Below, piece after piece: positions 1 to 9,885 of a DNA stretch of 12,475 nucleotides; the first letter of the stretch is position 1; every line of letters starts with the position of its first letter. A program made the translations under genes and the position numbers. Below the pieces are notes generated by a model, which had not been told where the DNA came from, made no database searches, and was given only the letters and a program-made list of their open reading frames with translations. This stretch comes from a virus (lineage: Duplodnaviria; Heunggongvirae; Uroviricota; Caudoviricetes), in the IMG/VR virus record IMGVR_UViG_2923286960_000002; one strand, given 5' to 3'.

Positions 1-1230
1 ATGAGCAGAGCACTTAACAAACTGAGCGATACACAGCTGAGGAAAATCAACGGCACACCCGCCCAAAAAACAGCCTTTCTTAATGACGGTGGAAACCTGA
101 GCGTCAGGCATTCAACCAGCGGCCTTTTAACCTGGTATTTCACCTACAGGGCCGGAACGGGAAGGGGAGCACGACCGGAACGGATTAAGCTGGGAAATTA
201 TCCTGATCTGAGTCTGAAAGCTGCCAGGGAAAAAGCGGCACAGTGTCGCGCTTGGCTTGCTGAGGGGAAAAATCCACGTCATGAGATGAATTACACCGTA
301 CAGAAAGCGTTAAAGCCCGTAACGGTTGGCGATGCGCTTACCTACTGGCTTGAGTCTTACGTAAAGGAAAACCGCGTGGATTATGCCGCCCTGAAAAAGC
401 GCCTTAATAATCACGTAATACAGCACATTGGTGCTATGCCGCTGGATAAATGCGAGCTACGGCACTGGCTGGCCTGTTTTGACCAGGTGGCAAAGCGAAC
501 GCCTGTTACTGCCGGATTCTTGCTACAGACGTGCAAACAGGCGCTTAAGTTCTGCCGGAGGCGGCGCTATGCAATCAGCAACGTTCTTGATGATATGAGT
601 GTGGCAGACGTTGGGAAAAAACCGGATATAAGCGAGCGTGTCTTAAGCACCAAAGAACTTGGCGAATTATTGCAGGCACTGGACAAAAAAATATTTTCCC
701 CTTACTACGTCGCACTAATCCGCCTCCTGATTGTTTTCGGATGCCGGACGGTAGAACTGAGGTTATCGGAGATCAGCGAGTGGGATTTTACCGAAATGCT
801 CTGGACCGTGCCGAAAGAACACAGCAAAACGAAGGTGGCAATATTCCGGCCCATACCGGAAGCAATACTGCCGTTCGTCACGCAGCTGGTGGAGCAGAAC
901 AGGCACACGGGCTTATTGCTGGGGGAAGTGAAACAGGAAACAAGCGTGTCGCAGTACGGTAGATTAGCGCACAGGAGGCTAAAACACCCTCACTGGTCAC
1001 TGCATGACATCCGGCGCACCTTTACAACGATGCTGAACGATTTAGGCGTGGATCCTCACGTCGTGGAGCAGCTTACAGGTCATCAGATGCCAGGGATGCA
1101 ACGAGTCTATAACCATTCCCGTTATCTGGATGCGAAACGTGACGCGCTGGATATGTGGACGGAGCGGTTAGGGATACTGGCGGGAACACATGAAAACGTA
1201 ACCACATTGCCAATAGCCAGAGAAATATAA
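1..1230 (+). CDS. int: Tyrosine recombinase/integrase, P4 (CP4-57 IntA-like) family
   Basis: 409 aa ORF; C-terminal catalytic region HDIRRTFTTML...LTGHQ...RVYNHSRY matches the R/H-x-x-R/H/Y pattern of P4-type integrases; N-terminal arm-binding-like region. Window starts at its ATG. Confidence 0.93.
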   Translation: MSRALNKLSDTQLRKINGTPAQKTAFLNDGGNLSVRHSTSGLLTWYFTYRAGTGRGARPERIKLGNYPDLSLKAAREKAAQCRAWLAEGKNPRHEMNYTVQKALKPVTVGDALTYWLESYVKENRVDYAALKKRLNNHVIQHIGAMPLDKCELRHWLACFDQVAKRTPVTAGFLLQTCKQALKFCRRRRYAISNVLDDMSVADVGKKPDISERVLSTKELGELLQALDKKIFSPYYVALIRLLIVFGCRTVELRLSEISEWDFTEMLWTVPKEHSKTKVAIFRPIPEAILPFVTQLVEQNRHTGLLLGEVKQETSVSQYGRLAHRRLKHPHWSLHDIRRTFTTMLNDLGVDPHVVEQLTGHQMPGMQRVYNHSRYLDAKRDALDMWTERLGILAGTHENVTTLPIAREI

Positions 1231-1253
1231 TTTTTTTTGCGATTTTTCAGGAT

Positions 1254-1313
1254 GCGGACAACGTGAAACAACGAGACACAACGACGAACAACAAGGAACA
1301 AAATGGAACAACG
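1254..1313. repeat. Six tandem 10-bp units with ACAAC(G) core, one helical turn apart
   Basis: ggacaACG tgaaACAACG agacACAACG acgaACAACA aggaACAAAA tggaACAACG, directly after the int stop codon. Confidence 0.6.
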
Positions 1314-1595
1314 GGTTAAAAATCAGCCATCGTAATAACCATTTGATTTTTATAGGTGTACTGTTTTTTTATACACTGGCGAATCACTCTTAAAAATATG
1401 TAAAAAAGGCGTAAAAGTAAAATTTTATGCCTTTGCATCATAATGAATTAAAAGAGTTTTTATTCTCATTCCCCCTGCTTCTGTAAAACGACCGCCGCCA
1501 GTGTTTGCCATTCCACAAACACCCTGACACAATCCGACACAACCCAACCCAATAATCCACCCAATGACTCTTTAAGAAACAACAAAGGGGGAATT

Positions 1596-1784
1596 GTGTT
1601 AAGCACAGATCGCTTTATACGTGAAAAAGAATGTCAGCAACTTACAGGCCTGAGCCGCTCATGTCGGTACCGCCTGGAAAAAGCCGGACAATTCCCATCA
1701 CGGCGTAAGCTGGGCGGTCGTTCCGTTGGCTGGTCTTTATCCGAAGTTCTGGCATGGAAGGACAGCTGCGAGGCAGTTCACTAA
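1596..1784 (+). CDS. alpA: AlpA-family (excisionase-like) HTH regulator
   Basis: 62 aa, GTG start preceded by AAAGGGGG SD; motif LTGLSRSCRYRLEKAGQFP...KLGGRSVGW typical of the prophage AlpA/Xis-like family; sits just downstream of int as in CP4-57/PICI layouts. Confidence 0.85.
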   Translation: MLSTDRFIREKECQQLTGLSRSCRYRLEKAGQFPSRRKLGGRSVGWSLSEVLAWKDSCEAVH

Positions 1785-1836
1785 TCAGGCTGGCGGCACA
1801 CAGCCGCCACCCATCCACTAATACAGAGATCTAACC

Positions 1837-3129
1837 ATGAATACTGGATATTCTCCCGAACAAGGGCGGGGCTTCGTTCGTCCTGAAAAACAGAATCTGC
1901 AAAATTTTGCCGAAAGTATTCCGGTTATTTCCGGCCTTACTGGCGGGAGTGAAACCAATATTGTTAACGCCAGAGCGTTGCAGATGTTTGATGATAAAAA
2001 GGGAGTAAATTTAACTTACACCCCTGACGGCAATCAGAATATGAGCATTATCTCTGAGTCAGGTTTCTACAAACTAATAAAAACAAAAAGCGCCCCGTTG
2101 CCGGAGCGCCTTTGTGAACAATTAACCTACTGCGCAAAAAATGAATCTGAGCAGTGGGATTATATCAACCATGTGGAGAAGCGCCACAATTGCCGAATAA
2201 CGGGCAAAACAAAGGCCACCCGCTACGGTGGCCCCTCGACACAAGCTACACGTTATCCCCAACGCATGAGCATTGCCAACAATGCCACATTTGCGGCTGG
2301 TGGGCAATGCAATCAGTCTGGTTCAGTTCGTTGCCATACCTGCAATGAGCGCTTTTCCCTGTACTCTTTAAGGAATTGCTCAAGGGCAAAAGCACATGGC
2401 GCGAATCTTTCTGATTCATGCTCTATCTTTCTGCGCCGTCTTTTCCGTGCCGGTGATAATGTTTTGGTCAATTCTTTATCGGTCATTGTGTTGTCCTGCA
2501 TAGCAATGCGCCGTAATACCTTACACCACGGCGCTGATGGTGATTACTCTGGTTCTTTGGCCTTGCGGCGCTGGCGATATTCAACTTCTCGTTTTAATGC
2601 CGCAGTAACAAATTGCCCCGTACTTTCGCCAGGCATTTTTACCGCCTCAACATTGTTCATAACTTCATGCGGAACCCTTGCCGCAACGGTTTGTGATTTT
2701 GCGTTTACTGCTTTTGTCGCCATGTGGTGTACCCCTCATAAAAAACAAATGCAGTATGCAGGAAAAAAAATAAGTGTTCAACACTTGACGTGTTTAACAC
2801 CTGGGTTTAAATTGGTGTTCAACACCTTGTTGGCGCAAGGTGCAGAAACGACGAAACCCGGCAGTGCGCTAACACTAACCGGGCTTCTAACCACCAACGA
2901 TAGCGAAAGTATCGAGGTAGCTATGCGAAATCATACCACACACCCGCAAGGGCGGGACTCGCACAACCTGAATAAATACATCTGGCGTTTTATCGCCCTG
3001 AGCACGGCACAACCGCGCGTGATTACCATTGAGGCCACCAGCGAACAGGAAGCACGCCAGCAATCTCCGGCTGGCTGCGTGATGGTATTCGCTGCCCGTA
3101 TTCGTCAGGAGGTGTGCCATGTGCAATAA
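1837..3129 (+). CDS. Bro-N-like domain ORF (antirepressor-like N-terminus); 3' two-thirds of the frame doubtful, possibly degraded
   Basis: N-terminal ~110 aa resemble the Bro-N domain (NLQNF..., DDKKGV..TPDGNQNMSIISESGFYKLIKTKSAP). From about aa 120 the frame is Cys/Ser/Thr/Arg-rich and poor in Asp/Glu/Lys, and it is antisense to a well-supported RHH gene. No clear SD before the ATG. Confidence 0.4.
   Translation: MNTGYSPEQGRGFVRPEKQNLQNFAESIPVISGLTGGSETNIVNARALQMFDDKKGVNLTYTPDGNQNMSIISESGFYKLIKTKSAPLPERLCEQLTYCAKNESEQWDYINHVEKRHNCRITGKTKATRYGGPSTQATRYPQRMSIANNATFAAGGQCNQSGSVRCHTCNERFSLYSLRNCSRAKAHGANLSDSCSIFLRRLFRAGDNVLVNSLSVIVLSCIAMRRNTLHHGADGDYSGSLALRRWRYSTSRFNAAVTNCPVLSPGIFTASTLFITSCGTLAATVCDFAFTAFVAMWCTPHKKQMQYAGKKISVQHLTCLTPGFKLVFNTLLAQGAETTKPGSALTLTGLLTTNDSESIEVAMRNHTTHPQGRDSHNLNKYIWRFIALSTAQPRVITIEATSEQEARQQSPAGCVMVFAARIRQEVCHVQ
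2313..2501 (-). CDS. Hypothetical small basic protein, second gene of the leftward RHH operon
   Basis: 62 aa, highly charged (KRRRRK), 42 nt downstream of the RHH gene on the same strand; no recognisable fold by eye. Confidence 0.3.
   Translation of the reverse strand: MQDNTMTDKELTKTLSPARKRRRRKIEHESERFAPCAFALEQFLKEYREKRSLQVWQRTEPD
2544..2723 (-). CDS. Ribbon-helix-helix (Arc/CopG/MetJ-like) DNA-binding protein, putative island repressor
   Basis: 59 aa ORF below the track's length cutoff: MATKAVNAKSQTVAARVPHEVMNNVEAVKMPGESTGQFVTAALKREVEYRQRRKAKEPE. Beta-strand/helix/G-x-S-T helix pattern of RHH proteins; GAGGGG SD ~9 nt upstream of ATG; three palindromic operators immediately upstream. Confidence 0.55.
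   Translation of the reverse strand: MATKAVNAKSQTVAARVPHEVMNNVEAVKMPGESTGQFVTAALKREVEYRQRRKAKEPE
2753..2826. promoter_or_regulatory. Divergent promoter/operator switch with three GTGTT-N-AACAC palindromes
   Basis: O1 2774-2784 gtgttcaacac, O2 2790-2800 gtgtttaacac, O3 2815-2825 gtgttcaacac. Rightward promoter TTGACG (2785-2790), 17 nt spacer, TAAATT (2808-2813). Leftward promoter TTGAAC (complement of 2776-2781), 17 nt, CATACT (complement of 2753-2758). O1 overlaps the leftward -35, O2 lies in the rightward spacer, O3 just after the rightward -10. Confidence 0.55.
2923..3129 (+). CDS. Hypothetical 68 aa protein; alternative first gene of the rightward operon (same frame as the 3' end of the 1837 ORF)
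   Basis: ATG at 2923 preceded by GAGGT; lies ~100 nt downstream of the rightward promoter; its stop overlaps the next start (ATGTGCAATAA). Confidence 0.3.
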   Translation: MRNHTTHPQGRDSHNLNKYIWRFIALSTAQPRVITIEATSEQEARQQSPAGCVMVFAARIRQEVCHVQ

Positions 3130-3358
3130 CATCCGTCCGGACGCAGCCGCCGAAGCCATCATAACGCTAATGCACGCGCTGATTGATATTTCTGTTATCG
3201 CAGACATGGCGCATAAGCACGCCACCAGTGAAACAGAATATGCCGGGGCTTTCGTTCCTCATTCGCTGGCGGTTATGCAACTTAGTGCGGATATGGCGCT
3301 GAATGAGGCCAAAGCCATCCTGATTGCTGATTGTGAAAATGGGGGGGGTTATGCGTGA
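3119..3358 (+). CDS. Hypothetical protein (79 aa)
   Basis: ORF translationally coupled to its neighbours; acidic, helical-looking composition; no recognisable family by eye. Confidence 0.5.
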   Translation: MCNNIRPDAAAEAIITLMHALIDISVIADMAHKHATSETEYAGAFVPHSLAVMQLSADMALNEAKAILIADCENGGGYA

Positions 3359-3584
3359 TGATCGTTTTAATTCCCTGAAACAGGAATTTTCCGGCGTTCC
3401 TGATGATGCGGCTGATGCGCTTTCGTCAATGCCAGAACTTATTAGAGCGGCTTTTTTCTTACTTTCCACGAGAGAATATAAATCAACGGGGCTTGATGTA
3501 CTGAATATCGCCGCCGATTATGCGGAATATGTGGCAGAGGCGCGTTACAGAAGAAAATTTCCTGAGGATGTAAGCCATGCGTGA
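3351..3584 (+). CDS. Hypothetical protein (77 aa; start chosen at the ATG behind a G-rich SD)
   Basis: Track ORF begins at 3324, but GGGGGGG at 3341-3347 precedes the ATG at 3351; start overlaps the upstream stop (ATGcgTGA). Confidence 0.5.
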   Translation: MRDDRFNSLKQEFSGVPDDAADALSSMPELIRAAFFLLSTREYKSTGLDVLNIAADYAEYVAEARYRRKFPEDVSHA

Positions 3585-3810
3585 TATTTACCACGAAACA
3601 ATAGACCGCGCATTTCTTGCACTTTCTCACAGTGAAAACATGCTGGAAATATTGCGCATATGGCTTGAAACACTTGGCGACAATGAACGCGACAAACAAA
3701 AATCAAGAATTGCCACGGCATTAATAACGCTTCTTGAGCCTGTAATAATGGAACTGCAAGAAATAGATCTATTGCACGACAGATATAAAGAACAGCACAC
3801 CGGAGAATAA
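3577..3810 (+). CDS. Hypothetical protein (77 aa)
   Basis: Start overlaps the stop of the upstream gene (ATGcgTGA at 3577-3584); protein-like composition. Confidence 0.5.
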   Translation: MRDIYHETIDRAFLALSHSENMLEILRIWLETLGDNERDKQKSRIATALITLLEPVIMELQEIDLLHDRYKEQHTGE

Positions 3811-3815
3811 AAATA

Positions 3816-4115
3816 ATGAAACTTAAATATTCTGGCTTAACTGCCAGTGGCAACACTCACCCTAAATTTACGCGCGGTGATATTTACCGCGACCAGTACG
3901 GCGGCACGGTAATGATTAAGGGCGTGGAAGAACGGCGTGTAACCTACCGCCGTGAAGGTTACGAATATGATTGCGTGATGCCTGTTTATCAGTTCCGGCG
4001 TGATTTTTCTCTGGTACAGACCGCGCCGCATAACGTGCCCACCAGCAACGCCAGGGCACGGGCAAACATCCAGAAGCTGAAAACCATGATTAACGGATTC
4101 AGGGGTAAAAAATGA
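3816..4115 (+). CDS. Hypothetical protein (99 aa), possibly a conserved enterobacterial prophage small protein
   Basis: Motif GDIYRDQYGGTVMIKGVEERRVTYRREGYEYDC; stop overlaps the start of the replication gene (ATGA at 4112-4115). Confidence 0.5.
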   Translation: MKLKYSGLTASGNTHPKFTRGDIYRDQYGGTVMIKGVEERRVTYRREGYEYDCVMPVYQFRRDFSLVQTAPHNVPTSNARARANIQKLKTMINGFRGKK

Positions 4116-5866
4116 AACTGGCACCGAACGTAAAACAGCAGTCACGCGGCATAAAACACAAAGGAACAGAAGTCATTATTTTTGCGGGTAGTGATGCCTG
4201 GGCACACGCGAAACAATGGCAGGAACATGATGCGCGTATGGCCGGAGATAATGAGCCTCCTGTGTGGCTTGGGGAGCAGCAGTTATCAGAACTGGATAAG
4301 CTGCAAATTGTGCCGGAAGGCAGAAAATCCGTGCGCATATTCAGGGCCGGATATCTTGCGCCAGTAATGATAAAGGCGATTGGCCAGAAGCTGGCGGCGG
4401 CAGGCGTACAGGATGCAAATTTTTACCCTGATGGTATGCACGGTCAGAAGGTGGAGAACTGGCGCGAATATCTGGCCCGTGAGCGCCAGAATCTTTCTGA
4501 TGGTCTGGTCATTGAGCTTCCGGTAAAGCAAAAGGCGCAACTTTCGCAGATGGCGGACAGTGAGCGCGCGCAGCTGCTTGCCGATCGCTTTGATGGCGTT
4601 TGCGTACATCCTGAAAGTGAAATCGTTCACGTATGGCGCGGCGGGGTATGGTGTCCGGTCAGCACAATGGAGCTTAGCCGCGAAATGGTGGCGATCTATT
4701 CAGAGCACAGGGCCACTTTCAGCAAGCGCGTAATCAATAACGCCGTGGAAGCGTTAAAAGTTATTGCCGAACCAATGGGCGAGCCGTCCGGCGATTTGCT
4801 GCCGTTCGCCAATGGTGCGCTTGACCTGAAAACGGGGGAATTTTCCCCGCACACGCCGGAGAACTGGATCACCACGCACAACGGCATTGAGTACACGCCA
4901 CCAGCACCCGGGGAGAACATCCGCGATAACGCGCCAAACTTTCATAAATGGCTTGAGCACGCAGCCGGAAAAGACCCGCGCAAGATGATGCGTATATGTG
5001 CCGCGCTGTACATGATTATGGCGAACCGGTACGACTGGCAGATGTTTATTGAGGCCACCGGAGACGGCGGGAGCGGTAAAAGTACATTCACACACATAGC
5101 CAGCCTTCTGGCAGGGAAACAGAACACGGTAAGCGCTGAAATGACATCGCTTGATGATGCTGGTGGACGTGCGCAGGTTGTCGGGAGTCGTCTTATCGTC
5201 CTGGCTGACCAGCCGAAATATACAGGCGAAGGAACGGGCATCAAGAAAATCACAGGCGGCGACCCCGTGGAAGTTAACCCGAAATATGAAAAGCGTTTCA
5301 CGGCGGTAATCAGGGCGGTGGTGCTGGCGACCAACAACAACCCGATGATATTCACCGAACGGGCCGGAGGTGTGGCACGTCGTCGCGTGATTTTCCGTTT
5401 CGACAATATCGTCAGTGAGGCCGACAAAGACAGGGAGCTACCGGAAAAGATTGCGGCTGAAATCCCTGTGATTATCCGCCGATTACTGGCGAACTTTTCC
5501 GCCCCTGAAAAGGCACGGGCTTTACTCATTGAACAGCGTGACGGTGATGAAGCACTGGCGATAAAGCAGCAAACGGATCCGGTTATTGAGTTTTGCCAGT
5601 TCCTGAATTTTCTGGAGGAAGCGCGCGGCCTGATGATGGGGGGCGGTGGCGATTCAGTGAAGTACACGACCAGGAACAGCCTTTACCGCGTCTATCTGGC
5701 GTTTATGGCATACGCAGGCAGGAGCAAACCGCTAAACGTAAATGACTTTGGCAAGGCTATGAAGCCAGCCGCGAAAGTTTACGGACATGAATATATTACG
5801 CGGAAAGTTAAGGGAGTAACGCAGACTAACGCAATAACAACAGACGATTGCGACGCGTTTTTATAA
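4112..5866 (+). CDS. Replication initiator/helicase, P4 alpha C-terminal-like (D5_N + SF3 helicase); PICI Pri-Rep-like
   Basis: 584 aa; Walker A GDGGSGKST near aa 315 followed by a hydrophobic strand ending LIVLAD; overall resemblance to the phage/plasmid primase P4-family C-terminal domain. No TOPRIM or AEP primase motif recognised by eye in the N-terminal 300 aa. Confidence 0.88.
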   Translation: MKLAPNVKQQSRGIKHKGTEVIIFAGSDAWAHAKQWQEHDARMAGDNEPPVWLGEQQLSELDKLQIVPEGRKSVRIFRAGYLAPVMIKAIGQKLAAAGVQDANFYPDGMHGQKVENWREYLARERQNLSDGLVIELPVKQKAQLSQMADSERAQLLADRFDGVCVHPESEIVHVWRGGVWCPVSTMELSREMVAIYSEHRATFSKRVINNAVEALKVIAEPMGEPSGDLLPFANGALDLKTGEFSPHTPENWITTHNGIEYTPPAPGENIRDNAPNFHKWLEHAAGKDPRKMMRICAALYMIMANRYDWQMFIEATGDGGSGKSTFTHIASLLAGKQNTVSAEMTSLDDAGGRAQVVGSRLIVLADQPKYTGEGTGIKKITGGDPVEVNPKYEKRFTAVIRAVVLATNNNPMIFTERAGGVARRRVIFRFDNIVSEADKDRELPEKIAAEIPVIIRRLLANFSAPEKARALLIEQRDGDEALAIKQQTDPVIEFCQFLNFLEEARGLMMGGGGDSVKYTTRNSLYRVYLAFMAYAGRSKPLNVNDFGKAMKPAAKVYGHEYITRKVKGVTQTNAITTDDCDAFL

Positions 5867-6154: not shown

Positions 6155-6412
6155 ATGCGCACATCAGGAAAACTTAATAATCAGAAGAAGCAGCATAACC
6201 GCGCCATTGACCTTACAGAGCACTGGCTGAGAGTGGCGATAAAAATCATCGACCGCAACACGGGGGAAGGATACGCGAAAGCACATCCCGACCTGATAAG
6301 CGCATTCATGACCACGGCGGCGGCAAACTTTGCCACGCTGACAGAACGGGAGATTGCCGAAGCGGAACAGGTAACAACCATCAACGTTAAAACCGGAGAG
6401 GTGGAATCATGA
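6155..6412 (+). CDS. Hypothetical protein (85 aa)
   Basis: Strong SD GAGGGGG upstream; stop overlaps the SSB-like start (ATGA at 6409-6412). Confidence 0.5.
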   Translation: MRTSGKLNNQKKQHNRAIDLTEHWLRVAIKIIDRNTGEGYAKAHPDLISAFMTTAAANFATLTEREIAEAEQVTTINVKTGEVES

Positions 6413-6831
6413 CAGCACAGATAGCAGCTTACGGGCGGCTGGTGGACGACCCGCAGGTAAAACAGACCAGCAAGGGCACACCAATGACGCTGGCACGTAT
6501 GGCGGTCCCCCTTCCGTGCAGCCAGGCAGATGACGGAACGGCGACGATGTGGTTATCCGTCCTGGCATTTGGCAGACAGGCCGAAGCACTGGAAAGGCAC
6601 CGCAAGGGTGAACTCCTGAGCGTGGCGGGTAACATGCAGATCAGCCAGTGGACTGGGCAGAACTGAGAAACGCGGCAGGGCTGGCAGGTTATCGCAGACA
6701 GTGTAATCAGTGCGCGAACGGCGCGACTGGGCGGCAAAAAAGGTCAACAGGGCCAGGCTACTGACGCGCTGAACAGGGCAAAACAACAGGCGGGGAATGA
6801 TGATCCGTACGGGGATAACATACCGTTTTAA
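6409..6831 (+). pseudogene. ssb: SSB-like OB-fold protein interrupted by a single in-frame TGA (6664-6666); nonsense mutation, readthrough or sequencing error
   Basis: N-terminal 85 aa align to the SSB OB fold (YGRLVDDPQVKQTSKG...WLSVLAFGRQAEALERHRKGELLSVAGNMQISQWTGQN). The same frame continues after the TGA for 54 codons and ends in the SSB acidic tip ...DDPYGDNIPF. The TGA sits where SSB has a conserved Gly codon. Confidence 0.7.
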
Positions 6832-9444: not shown

Positions 9445-9885
9445 ATGATTGATAAAGCTTGTTTTGTAAGTCAGCAGGAAATAGCTGAACATTTCAAGGT
9501 TAACAGAACCACTATTCGCGCATGGACCAAACAGGGGATGCCGTATCTTAATGCGGATCGCGGAAAGTCTGGCGGTTATCACATCGGGCATACATTGCTT
9601 TGGTCTTCAGGTAAAAGCCGTCTTGAGGCCATCAGATATCACGTAGAAACCAGTGTGCTGGAAAAAATTATGTTTGCCAGGCTGCTTTCATCTGAGCGTG
9701 ACGAGTACTCCAGTGAAGAAACAGAACATAGATTTGATGAAGGTTTACAGATTTACGGCTACTCACCGGAAGAAGTGAGCAAAGCGCGAAATAAAATGGC
9801 CGGCTTTCTGGCTGGGTGGCGTCATGCCGTAAGCGTTCGCCGTGCCAGCATGGAACAATCAGTCGTTACAGAACAGCAAAGTTAA
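9445..9885 (+). CDS. Nu1-like HTH protein: small terminase subunit or TerS-mimicking packaging redirector (Rpp-like)
   Basis: 146 aa; N-terminus FVSQQEIAEHFKVNRTTIRAWTKQGMPYL..GKSGGYHIGHTLLW resembles the lambda Nu1 winged-HTH DNA-binding domain (QLADIFGASIRTIQNWQEQGMPVL...); SD AAGGT upstream. Confidence 0.75.
   Translation: MIDKACFVSQQEIAEHFKVNRTTIRAWTKQGMPYLNADRGKSGGYHIGHTLLWSSGKSRLEAIRYHVETSVLEKIMFARLLSSERDEYSSEETEHRFDEGLQIYGYSPEEVSKARNKMAGFLAGWRHAVSVRRASMEQSVVTEQQS

Follow-up and report, generated by a model that had tools for sequence, protein, structure and literature searches.

A putative counterpart of the P4 left operon, headed by a predicted cis-antisense RNA, in an EcCICFT073-type satellite of Escherichia coli

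The DNA stretch considered here, IMG/VR virus record IMGVR_UViG_2923286960_000002 (12,475 nt; hereafter the window), is recognized by its insertion site and gene content as an EcCICFT073-type phage-inducible chromosomal island (PICI) of Escherichia coli, i.e. a phage satellite. Five small open reading frames (ORFs), orf1 to orf5, are arranged head-to-tail directly upstream of its replication gene pri, and the interval between the activator gene alpA and orf1 is spanned by a long ORF that ends together with orf1. In this type of island, the five ORFs probably make up the part of the early (replication) operon nearest to its promoter; the operon as a whole would correspond to the left operon of satellite P4 and be governed by a mechanism that is developed below from the features at its head. 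The operon as such is of a known kind and resides in a known island; what is new is the regulatory anatomy at its head. The plus-strand features concerned are the following (aa, amino acids; E, expectation value):

1596..1784, plus strand: alpA, AlpA/Vis-type regulator and upstream activator gene (Pfam Phage_AlpA, E 3e-18)
1837..3129, plus strand: eta-like 'Bro-network' ORF of 430 codons, with a BRO-N remnant in its N-terminal part and an Icd-like domain in its C-terminal part
2923-3129, plus strand: orf1, 68 aa
3119-3358, plus strand: orf2, 79 aa
3341-3348, plus strand: G8 homopolymer at the orf2/orf3 junction, the length of which decides between separate and fused orf2/orf3
3351-3584, plus strand: orf3, 77 aa
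3577-3810, plus strand: orf4, 77 aa
3816-4115, plus strand: orf5, 99 aa
4112-5866, plus strand: pri, primase-helicase/replication initiator, 584 aa, with D5_N, DUF5906 and Pox_D5 domains (TIGR01613)

The five small ORFs had been delimited before in a sequence-only reading of the window, and their coordinates and sizes proved exact. All five genes are annotated by RefSeq/PGAP in E. coli genomes showing 100% identity over this region, each ORF matches a PHROG family (E 1e-31 to 1e-49), and pairwise ratios of nonsynonymous to synonymous substitution rates (dN/dS) within the five families lie between 0.20 and 0.38 (orf1 0.20, orf2 0.24, orf3 0.21, orf4 0.24), which denotes purifying selection. In addition, a Shine-Dalgarno (SD)-like motif is located 5-10 nt upstream of every start codon in the series. 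The overlapping start and stop codons that were claimed for the whole set are present at four junctions and conserved across the family of related loci: orf1 and orf2 have 11 nt in common (ATGTGCAATAA), orf2/orf3 and orf3/orf4 have 8 nt in common each (both ATGCGTGA), and orf5 passes into pri through a shared ATGA. The orf4/orf5 junction, however, consists of a 5-nt spacer, AAATA, without any overlap. Likewise, the placement of an operon at 2923-4115 stands insofar as the five genes immediately precede the replication gene, to which they are coupled, but the series continues past position 4115 into pri itself. Stoichiometric co-expression, which had been deduced from the overlaps, was an inference for which P4 supplies an equally good alternative, namely protection of the transcript from Rho-dependent polarity; the overlaps may accordingly be taken to serve processive translation at least as much as stoichiometry.

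Related loci were collected by scanning IMG/VR viral contigs with a degenerate DNA pattern for orf1 codons 3-12 in which any synonymous codon was allowed. This returned 120 contigs, mostly of satellite size (7-14 kb), whereas a profile scan of genome contigs with an Icd-like alignment found only four loci. The layout that recurs in the 120 loci comprises an Icd-like gene of 66-68 aa at the position of orf1, one to five small genes, a gene for a DUF4222 protein at the position of orf5, an ATGA junction, and a primase-helicase gene. The small genes in the middle are drawn from about ten interchangeable families, and the DUF4222 gene, of about 99 aa, is preceded by a gap of 4-6 nt and followed by the ATGA overlap with the primase gene in nearly all loci. 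Overlaps occur at 345 of 502 junctions (69%), a further 115 of the 502 having gaps of 0-10 nt, and the commonest values are -8 (164 junctions), -4 (104) and -11 (63). The primase-helicase belongs to one of four clusters, and DUF4222 is found alongside all of them (31/31, 27/27, 20/20 and 13/13). The families of orf3 and orf4 likewise occur with all four clusters, though not in every locus. Hence, the operon has fixed ends and a mosaic middle, since DUF4222 accompanies every primase cluster while the orf3 and orf4 families vary.

The junctions themselves appear to take part in this mosaicism. A junction cassette, CATGCGTGA, recurs at several boundaries (3351-3359 and 3577-3585 in the window); here the letters C ATG CGT GA read as ...H-A-stop in the upstream gene and as M-R-D... 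in the next one. Moreover, natural deletion chimeras were found for orf1-orf2, orf1-orf3 and orf3-orf4; besides the window, locus L060 and the proteins P0041 and P0078 belong to these observations on cassette and chimeras. The recurring cassette together with the deletion chimeras suggests that cassettes are shuffled by recombination at the junctions. Pairwise Smith-Waterman comparison with shuffled controls gave no signal of paralogy among the small ORFs, save for one pair that is explained by a chimeric deletion variant. At the orf2/orf3 junction, the length of the G-run varies across loci, with G7 (10), G8 (8), G9 (3) and G10 (1). Runs of G7 and G10 fuse orf2 and orf3 into one frame of about 150-154 aa, and such fused products are present in databases (phrog_2512). 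This variation represents either phase variation or homopolymer sequencing error. A 'Rosetta-stone' fusion of orf2 and orf3 (phrog_2512, 154 aa) was considered and rejected, the joined protein being a product of G-run length and not a stable gene fusion.

The product of orf1 is a small basic protein (isoelectric point, pI, 9.5) which matches NCBIfam NF033153, the Icd-like host cell division inhibitors, with 69.8 bits against a cut-off of 25 over residues 19-62. P4 Kil, read from the P4 sequence, scores 76.1 bits with the same model, and phrog_1743 is common to orf1 and P4 Kil; the label 'transcriptional repressor' carried by this PHROG stems from an old protein annotation of the P4 cI region. 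These profile matches place orf1 in the Kil/Icd family, a curated family of which P4 Kil is a member as well. Expression of P1 Icd and of P4 Kil results in inhibition of cell division or in killing. Many matches of orf1 among representative proteins are 200-640 aa long and carry the Icd-like domain at the extreme C-terminus, in some cases preceded by a Phage_ASH domain. For P4 Kil, the detectable relatives are N15 gp32 and PY54 icd, both from secondary-immunity regions; a P1-like phage is matched very weakly (E 9). A tblastn comparison detected no similarity between orf1 and P1-type Icd, and a sequence search of the PDB gave no match for orf1 or orf5.

The proteins of orf2, orf3 and orf4 are all acidic (pI 4.6-5.0), and none of them has a Pfam or NCBIfam family. 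The orf2 product (phrog_5146, E 1.9e-31; pI 4.6) is the most variable of the set. For orf3, 122 homologues were found, exclusively in E. coli or Shigella, and a comparison with 50,697 phage records gave no match. The orf4 gene (phrog_2196, E 8.4e-42) is the commonest of the variable genes and always stands directly upstream of the DUF4222 gene; its family comprises 64 proteins across the related loci, it has 528 homologues, among the 120 listed of which every named entry is from E. coli and all are at least 92% identical, too alike to be of use for structure prediction, and it is without a match in the phage collection. An AlphaFold2 model of a fused natural variant predicts orf2 and orf3 to be helical, albeit with low confidence (predicted local distance difference test, pLDDT, 58.5). 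The acidity of orf2-orf4, their cassette behaviour, their restriction to satellites and a position like that of P4 epsilon suggest that they bind helper or host targets.

The orf5 protein, which matches Pfam DUF4222 (PF13973) with 85.7 bits against a gathering score of 27 over residues 16-68, is very basic (pI 10.2) and is modelled by AlphaFold2 as a five-strand Tudor/SH3-like barrel (pLDDT 81-89) followed by a C-terminal helix. The barrel resembles the helicase-appended Tudor domains of UvrD and PcrA, a generic fold match, and in BFVD the matches are limited to uncharacterised proteins and DUF1653 barrels. In phages, the barrel domain was found alone (45% identity) and the full-length protein never.

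The 430-codon ORF begins 52 nt after alpA, and its final 68 codons are orf1. A BRO-N pseudogene is annotated by PGAP in the same frame, the NF033153 match falls on residues 381-424, and on its way the frame passes two genes of the minus strand, to which it is antisense, as well as the promoter region treated below. Among 95 unique loci, the orf1 frame is open upstream of the ATG for a median of 798 nt, as against 3 and 21 nt for the other two frames, and for at least 300 nt in 80 of the 95. The openness of this frame across the leader, the promoter region and the opposite genes is far beyond chance.

The same arrangement is found in P4. The left operon of P4 has the order vis, 'cI' ORF (eta/kil), epsilon, orf151, orf106 and alpha, and in the window AlpA, a Kil-family gene, small genes and a primase-helicase likewise follow each other; in both, a Kil-family ORF is nested in the 3' part of a long eta-like ORF downstream of an alpA/vis homologue. 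The overlaps of kil/epsilon and epsilon/orf151 in P4 measure 8 nt each (for P4 overlaps, GTGcgTAA and GTGCGTAA; in the window, ATGCGTGA). The identity of window AlpA is 100% to AlpA of EcCICFT073 and 47% to P4 Vis; for Pri, the values are 99% with the EcCICFT073 protein and 40% with residues 324-756 of P4 alpha (E 3e-111). According to PMC10111431, which cites Forti et al. 1999, Kil is a truncated form of Eta, and transcripts from a constitutive promoter inside eta end early by the action of the CI RNA. The same source states that the full-length form of Eta is made solely from transcripts of the upstream late promoter, its translation being coupled to the alpA homologue, and that translation of eta prevents premature termination and thus permits expression of the downstream genes (PMC10111431).

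There are, however, clear differences from P4. While P4 has the CI/C4 RNA and a seqA/isrK target in the long ORF, the window has neither: no Rfam model matches anywhere in it at gathering scores, and C4 and isrK, both present in P4 and in the sister loci L015 and L026, have no match at E<=5 in 1200-4300. P4 epsilon matches Pfam PF25738 (Derepression) at E 9e-51, which none of the five ORFs does, and a phmmer search with P4 epsilon found no match among the proteins of the 120 loci; more generally, no counterpart of epsilon, orf151 or orf106 (DUF5375) was detectable in the window, so that its small-gene set differs from that of P4. Furthermore, Pri has no region aligning to the N-terminal third of P4 alpha, and the window, unlike P4, carries a predicted antisense RNA and a divergent repressor-like gene on the opposite strand within the long ORF. 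Two candidate homologies were rejected. For orf2 as an epsilon homologue, a weak collinear BLASTP match (26% over 66 aa, E 0.003 in a search of seven sequences) was not confirmed by Pfam or phmmer; for orf5 as the N-terminus of P4 orf151, a weak collinear BLASTP match (E 0.06) was not confirmed by profiles. The IMG/VR loci L015 and L026 combine both designs: their orf1 forms are 178-184 aa long, contain isrK and C4 RNAs and a second kil-like internal start, and a SymR-like antisense element is present at the leader.

The antisense element of the window covers the start of orf1 and is described by two minus-strand features:

2840..2925, minus strand: predicted cis-antisense small RNA (sRNA), about 75-85 nt, complementary to the 5' untranslated region, SD sequence and start codon of orf1
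2930..2938, minus strand: extended -10 element TGgTATGAT, within orf1 codons 3-6 and 7 nt before the first base of the RNA model

A permissive Rfam search returned a full-length match to SymR (RF01809) at 2850-2922 on the minus strand, with 33.3 bits and E values of 1.5e-4 to 9e-4. For the minus strand, a fold with two hairpins is predicted (-36.5 kcal/mol, z -6.2), as against a z of -1.7 for the plus strand, and in the family the minus strand is the more stable one in 80 of 80 unique sequences (means of -37.9 vs -24.1 kcal/mol). RNAalifold applied to 30 diverse sequences yields 22 consensus pairs with compensatory changes in 10 of them; 96.7% of the cells are paired, values which none of 500 shuffles reaches, and registers slid along the alignment are 33-60% paired. 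Three stem positions hold G-U pairs in 30, 27 and 20 of the 30 sequences, where the plus strand would have A-C mismatches. The 5' hairpin is conserved and contains the anti-SD sequence CCUC, the complement of the orf1 SD, and the 3' hairpin is variable in sequence, always GC-rich and provided with a U-tract, in the manner of an intrinsic terminator. In addition, no third-position change occurs in orf1 codons 3-11 and 14-18 among 75 unique sequences, whereas codons 25-61 vary synonymously. Over its first 54 nt, orf1 is therefore under constraint as a nucleotide sequence, which is what an embedded promoter would lead one to expect. A covariance model (R1) built from the PICI RNAs scores 95.7 bits in the window, finds one copy by the leader in 100 of 100 loci, and also matches genomes of Edwardsiella, Klebsiella, Citrobacter and Pantoea. 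Three satellite contigs, L015 (10474-10553), L033 (2328-2413) and L056 (4486-4572), additionally have a second copy of the element elsewhere, which is more divergent and scores about 50 bits.

In its design, the predicted RNA resembles symR of E. coli K-12, the antitoxin RNA of the type I toxin-antitoxin pair SymR/symE, an RNA of about 77 nt which has its promoter inside the 5' end of the target ORF, is antisense to start codon and SD, and folds into two hairpins, the second of which is the terminator. The -10 geometry is alike as well (TAGAAT-N7-A in K-12 symR, TATGAT-N7-A in the window). With filters off, the best match of the PICI RNA model on a 4-kb K-12 stretch falls exactly on symR, at 19 bits; default filters miss it. 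The targets differ, symR acting on SymE, an AbrB-fold protein, and the window RNA presumably on the Kil/Icd-like orf1. Outside the overlapped leader, orf1 and SymE are not similar, and there is no sign of a LexA box. Membership in the SymR family was not adopted for the element, as its score is about half the gathering threshold and the reciprocal match is weak, and the likeness may reflect either homology or convergence. Taken together, it is very likely that a SymR-like cis-antisense sRNA is encoded at the head of the operon. No prior description of SymR with satellites or of antisense RNA in PICIs was found in the searchable literature.

To the left of the antisense RNA, a divergent transcription unit faces an intergenic region of 200 nt, in which operator-like repeats bracket a candidate promoter for the genes from orf1 to pri:

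2544..2723, minus strand: divergent 59-aa YlcI/YnfO-family gene, candidate ribbon-helix-helix (RHH) repressor (NCBIfam NF041551, E 2.1e-16)
2313..2501, minus strand: 62-aa ORF, second gene of the divergent unit (phrog_21027, E 1.6e-15)
2113-2086, minus strand: terminator-like hairpin of 12 pairs followed by a T-run, downstream of the 62-aa ORF and inside the long plus-strand ORF
2774-2784, 2790-2800 and 2815-2825: three operator-like GTGTTYAACAC palindromes bracketing the operon promoter
2785..2813, plus strand: sigma-70-like promoter TTGACG-17-TAAATT with 9 of 12 consensus matches, within the long ORF, candidate promoter for orf1-pri

The hairpin at 2086-2113 probably ends the divergent unit, whose second ORF is 100% identical over 57 aa to an annotated protein of CFT073. 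The 59-aa protein is only 59% identical to the CFT073 allele, although the flanking genes are 97-100% identical. Other alleles or families of the divergent protein carry repeats of their own, namely GTGAATACC in three copies, GTGTAAGAC-type repeats, and GGTGTACACC and GGTAATTACC in two copies each, and several proteins at the same position in other loci give sub-threshold Pfam matches to Arc, HicB and PSK_trans_fac, which are of RHH type. Divergent alleles thus co-vary with their palindromes, the signature of repressor-operator co-evolution, which makes the 59-aa protein a candidate PICI repressor; from this pattern, we infer that it binds the palindromes and represses the operon promoter.

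Several known systems resemble this arrangement in part. EcCICFT073 itself has the series of small genes upstream of pri in common with the window, orf1 to orf5 being 97, 50, 90, 90 and 94% identical, respectively, but it has six of them, since a further gene of 76 aa is inserted after the Icd-like gene and before the orf2 counterpart; the terminator hairpin of its antisense RNA differs from that of the window by compensatory changes. In the immI region of P1, according to work attributed to Riedel et al. 1993 and to Citron and Schuster 1990, a small RNA reportedly blocks icd at its ribosome-binding site, and the downstream genes are said to depend on icd translation. There, as in the secondary immunity of N15 and PY54, an Icd-family ORF heads the operon just as orf1 does in the window. 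In P1 immI, however, the RNA is of C4 type, acts in trans and arises by processing of the same transcript, while that of the window is a predicted cis-antisense transcript, and downstream of the Icd-family gene P1 has antirepressors where the window has small proteins and then primase.

A third parallel is the ECOR61 'prophage' module, in which six linked genes, among them those for an Icd-like protein and a DNA primase, bring about programmed cell death on expression of a phage accessory gene, orf24 (bioRxiv 10.1101/2023.04.06.535777). Cell death is lost when the Icd-like gene is removed (Silas et al., bioRxiv 10.1101/2023.04.06.535777), and the same study describes that a P4 prophage kills cells on expression of P22 Abc1, possibly via kil (bioRxiv 10.1101/2023.04.06.535777). 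The module resembles the window in its Icd-like protein and primase, a likeness judged by description only, and its Icd-like protein, which is extended by a long segment at the N-terminus, is comparable in this to the 178-184-aa forms of L015 and L026 or to the 430-codon ORF of the window. In light of these systems, the suggestion of the sequence-only reading that this position in satellites holds helper-interference, derepression or anti-phage cargo has precedents in P4 kil and epsilon and in the ECOR61 module. It is not borne out by direct matches, in that PADLOC-DB 2.0 gave none at E<=1 for orf1-orf5 or the 59-aa and 62-aa proteins, and no epsilon homologue is detectable. The same reading held that none of the five proteins could be assigned. 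This applies to orf2-orf4, which are without informative homologues, but not to orf1 and orf5, which fall into the Kil/Icd and DUF4222 families.

The mechanism proposed for the operon distinguishes a resting and an induced state of the island. In the resting island, the divergent RHH-like protein would repress the internal promoter, and a constitutive cis-antisense sRNA of about 80 nt would pair with the ribosome-binding site of orf1 on any residual transcripts, in the fashion of SymR on symE; this pairing would silence the Kil-type toxin and, by polarity, the downstream genes through pri. A helper phage would raise the level of AlpA, upon which transcription would enter from upstream by putative read-through past the opposite-strand genes. 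Putative translation of the eta-like frame and head-to-tail translation of the coupled small genes would then keep Rho off the transcript, with the effect that Pri could be made and the island replicate. As to the products, gene 1 would arrest or kill the cell if expressed out of context, as do Kil, Icd and the ECOR61 module, genes 2-4 would be satellite-specific accessory proteins aimed at host or helper targets, and gene 5 may assist the replication gene as an adaptor that binds nucleic acid or polymerase.

Several points weigh against this account. The operon, its promoter and the antisense RNA are known here from sequence alone, and the components that define the P4 system, i.e. the CI/C4 RNA, seqA/isrK and epsilon, are absent from the window. 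The operon promoter is a consensus match of a kind that occurs at chance frequency in the region, and the promoter of the antisense RNA was read by eye and has no -35 element. With 33.3 bits, the RNA does not reach the SymR gathering score of 61 bits, and the sister loci score 32.8-35.9 bits. Moreover, the 59-aa allele of the window is without a Pfam match, its RHH character being taken from the sequence pattern and from the same-position proteins of other loci. Finally, orf2-orf4 lack informative homologues, and the structure model of orf2-orf3 is unreliable (pLDDT 58.5).

A more far-reaching proposal, which is put forward tentatively and with somewhat less than even confidence, concerns the repression of Gram-negative PICIs in general, for which the existence of a master repressor is unclear according to PMC6092414. 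The operon head may represent this missing repression system, consisting of an allele-specific repressor with its own operators and of a constitutive cis-antisense sRNA, either a distant relative of SymR or a convergent copy, which would form a type-I-toxin-antitoxin-like gate with the Kil/Icd gene and take the place of the C4/CI RNA of P4. If true, this would explain how very common islands are kept silent without an Stl-like master repressor and how they are switched on by AlpA-driven read-through across the repressor gene, and the interchangeable acidic genes behind the gate would be a stock of effectors peculiar to satellites and directed at proteins of the helper or the host.

Of the other explanations, the one that fares best, though on the whole unlikely, is that the operon is primarily an abortive-infection or superinfection-exclusion module which is derepressed by an incoming phage, whereupon the Kil/Icd protein, with the small proteins and the primase, stops division or kills the cell and thereby protects the clonal population. 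Cell death upon phage gene expression is indeed on record for the six-gene module of ECOR61 and for the P4 prophage, orf1 and P4 Kil are in the same curated family, and a toxin combined with an antisense RNA resembles the layout of a type I toxin-antitoxin pair. On the other hand, none of the five proteins has a PADLOC match, the Icd-like protein of ECOR61 is set apart by its long N-terminal extension, and rppA (c1503) was identified as the source of the interference of EcCICFT073 with lambda, the genes considered here not being individually included. The module is, moreover, joined to the island's own replication gene in every locus. Because pri and AlpA of EcCICFT073 are needed for replication and transfer, the role in replication is certain, and one in defence would be additional to it.

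With regard to orf2-orf4 in particular, it has to be considered whether they are helper-manipulating antirepressors or derepression factors, like P4 epsilon, P1 Ant and N15 AntA-C, which awaken or reprogram a resident helper prophage. P1 Ant and N15 AntA-C are encoded directly downstream of icd/kil. Similarly, epsilon overlaps the kil stop codon in P4 as orf2 overlaps that of orf1, and the relatives of P4 Kil in N15 and PY54 sit in secondary-immunity/antirepressor regions. The weak BLASTP match of orf2 to epsilon mentioned above points the same way, and acidic, fast-diversifying, cassette-like and satellite-confined proteins such as orf2-orf4 are what would be expected of proteins that track a helper. 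Yet orf2 fails PF25738, phmmer with epsilon came back empty in the 120 loci, there is no report of EcCICFT073 inducing its lambdoid helpers, and the cassette genes assort independently of the primase type, all of which renders this explanation improbable.

No better placed is the proposal that all five genes encode accessory replication factors of Pri-Rep, e.g. proteins that bind the origin, load the helicase or inhibit host replication, whose ratio to Pri would be fixed by the coupling; it, too, is judged doubtful. It accords with the ATGA coupling of DUF4222 to pri, seen in almost every locus, with the presence of DUF4222 alongside each of the four primase clusters, with the very basic orf5 protein and its barrel resembling the UvrD/PcrA Tudor domains, and with the fact that Pri has nothing that aligns to the N-terminal third of P4 alpha. 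However, an obligatory role in replication is argued against by the middle genes, since these vary in number (1-5) and family among islands with the same primase type. The family of gene 1 is known for cell killing or division arrest and not for replication, and the fold match of orf5 is, as stated, generic. That the small ORFs are chance frames in a long primase leader and not expressed as proteins, as their shortness and the lack of a Pfam or NCBIfam family for three of the five might suggest, is scarcely credible in view of the dN/dS values of 0.20-0.38, the PHROG families, PGAP annotation and SD motifs for all five, and the stop/start overlaps conserved in hundreds of junctions.

The interpretation of the five genes as the proximal part of a P4-type early operon is embedded in what is known of the island as a whole, whose remaining landmarks are:

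1-1230: int, 100% identical to CFT073, at the left end, with the co-oriented alpA next to it
9445-9885: RppA homologue (packaging redirection, c1503), 97% identical to CFT073 RppA

The island measures about 11 kb and is inserted between roxA and phoQ, the chromosomal site that is also occupied in E. coli CFT073 by EcCICFT073, the prototype of the Gram-negative PICIs (Fillol-Salom et al. 2018, 2019). Apart from the proteins already named, its capsid and decoration homologues are 95% and 99% identical to those of CFT073; they are the only late-type genes annotated in the island, which possesses its own pri-rep and no phage tail or lysis genes. An int-alpA left end, an own pri-rep, the size class of about 10-15 kb and an Rpp protein predicted to redirect the small subunit of the helper terminase, by which a PICI of the EcCICFT073 type is recognized, are thus all present, and the insertion site and the near-identical int, alpA, pri and rppA confirm that the earlier view of the element as a satellite was right. 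For EcCICFT073 itself, and not for the variant in the window, induction by helper phage and high-frequency transfer have been shown with lambda and phi80 (PMC6092414). AlpA activates the genes of EcCICFT073 and is required for induction, and pri and int are both required for replication (PMC6092414). A screen for interference covered only the genes after the origin of replication (ori) and assigned the interference with lambda to rppA (c1503) (PMC6739421). Since only post-ori genes were taken into this published screen, the interval between alpA and pri is uncharacterised even in the model island.

This interval is widespread. Some part of 2700-4300 is matched in 1896 of 5426 complete E. coli genomes, and at least 80% of it is covered in 352 of them; megablast of the same segment against the 50,697 phage records gave no match. 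Parts of the operon are therefore present in about a third of complete E. coli genomes, and the genes between alpA and pri are unstudied. EcCICFT073 is the model Gram-negative PICI and is under engineering as a delivery vehicle, and a Kil-type gate is relevant to engineered PICIs in that leaky expression would be toxic. The eta/kil framework of P4 turns five hypothetical proteins into testable questions, which concern the silencing and switching-on of the island, the harm done to the host by uncontrolled induction, and proteins that target the helper.

Some further observations pertain to the state of this particular copy and to its distal genes. The ssb gene at 6409-6666 is annotated as a pseudogene with an internal stop, with 85 aa in the window vs 136 aa in CFT073, and the PerC-family gene (perC) of CFT073 is missing from the window. 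With ssb interrupted and perC missing, the island copy of the window may be partly decayed. The RppA homologue (9445-9885) gives a weak PADLOC match to mad1 (E 7e-5, residues 8-33), which probably reflects a shared helix-turn-helix motif only.

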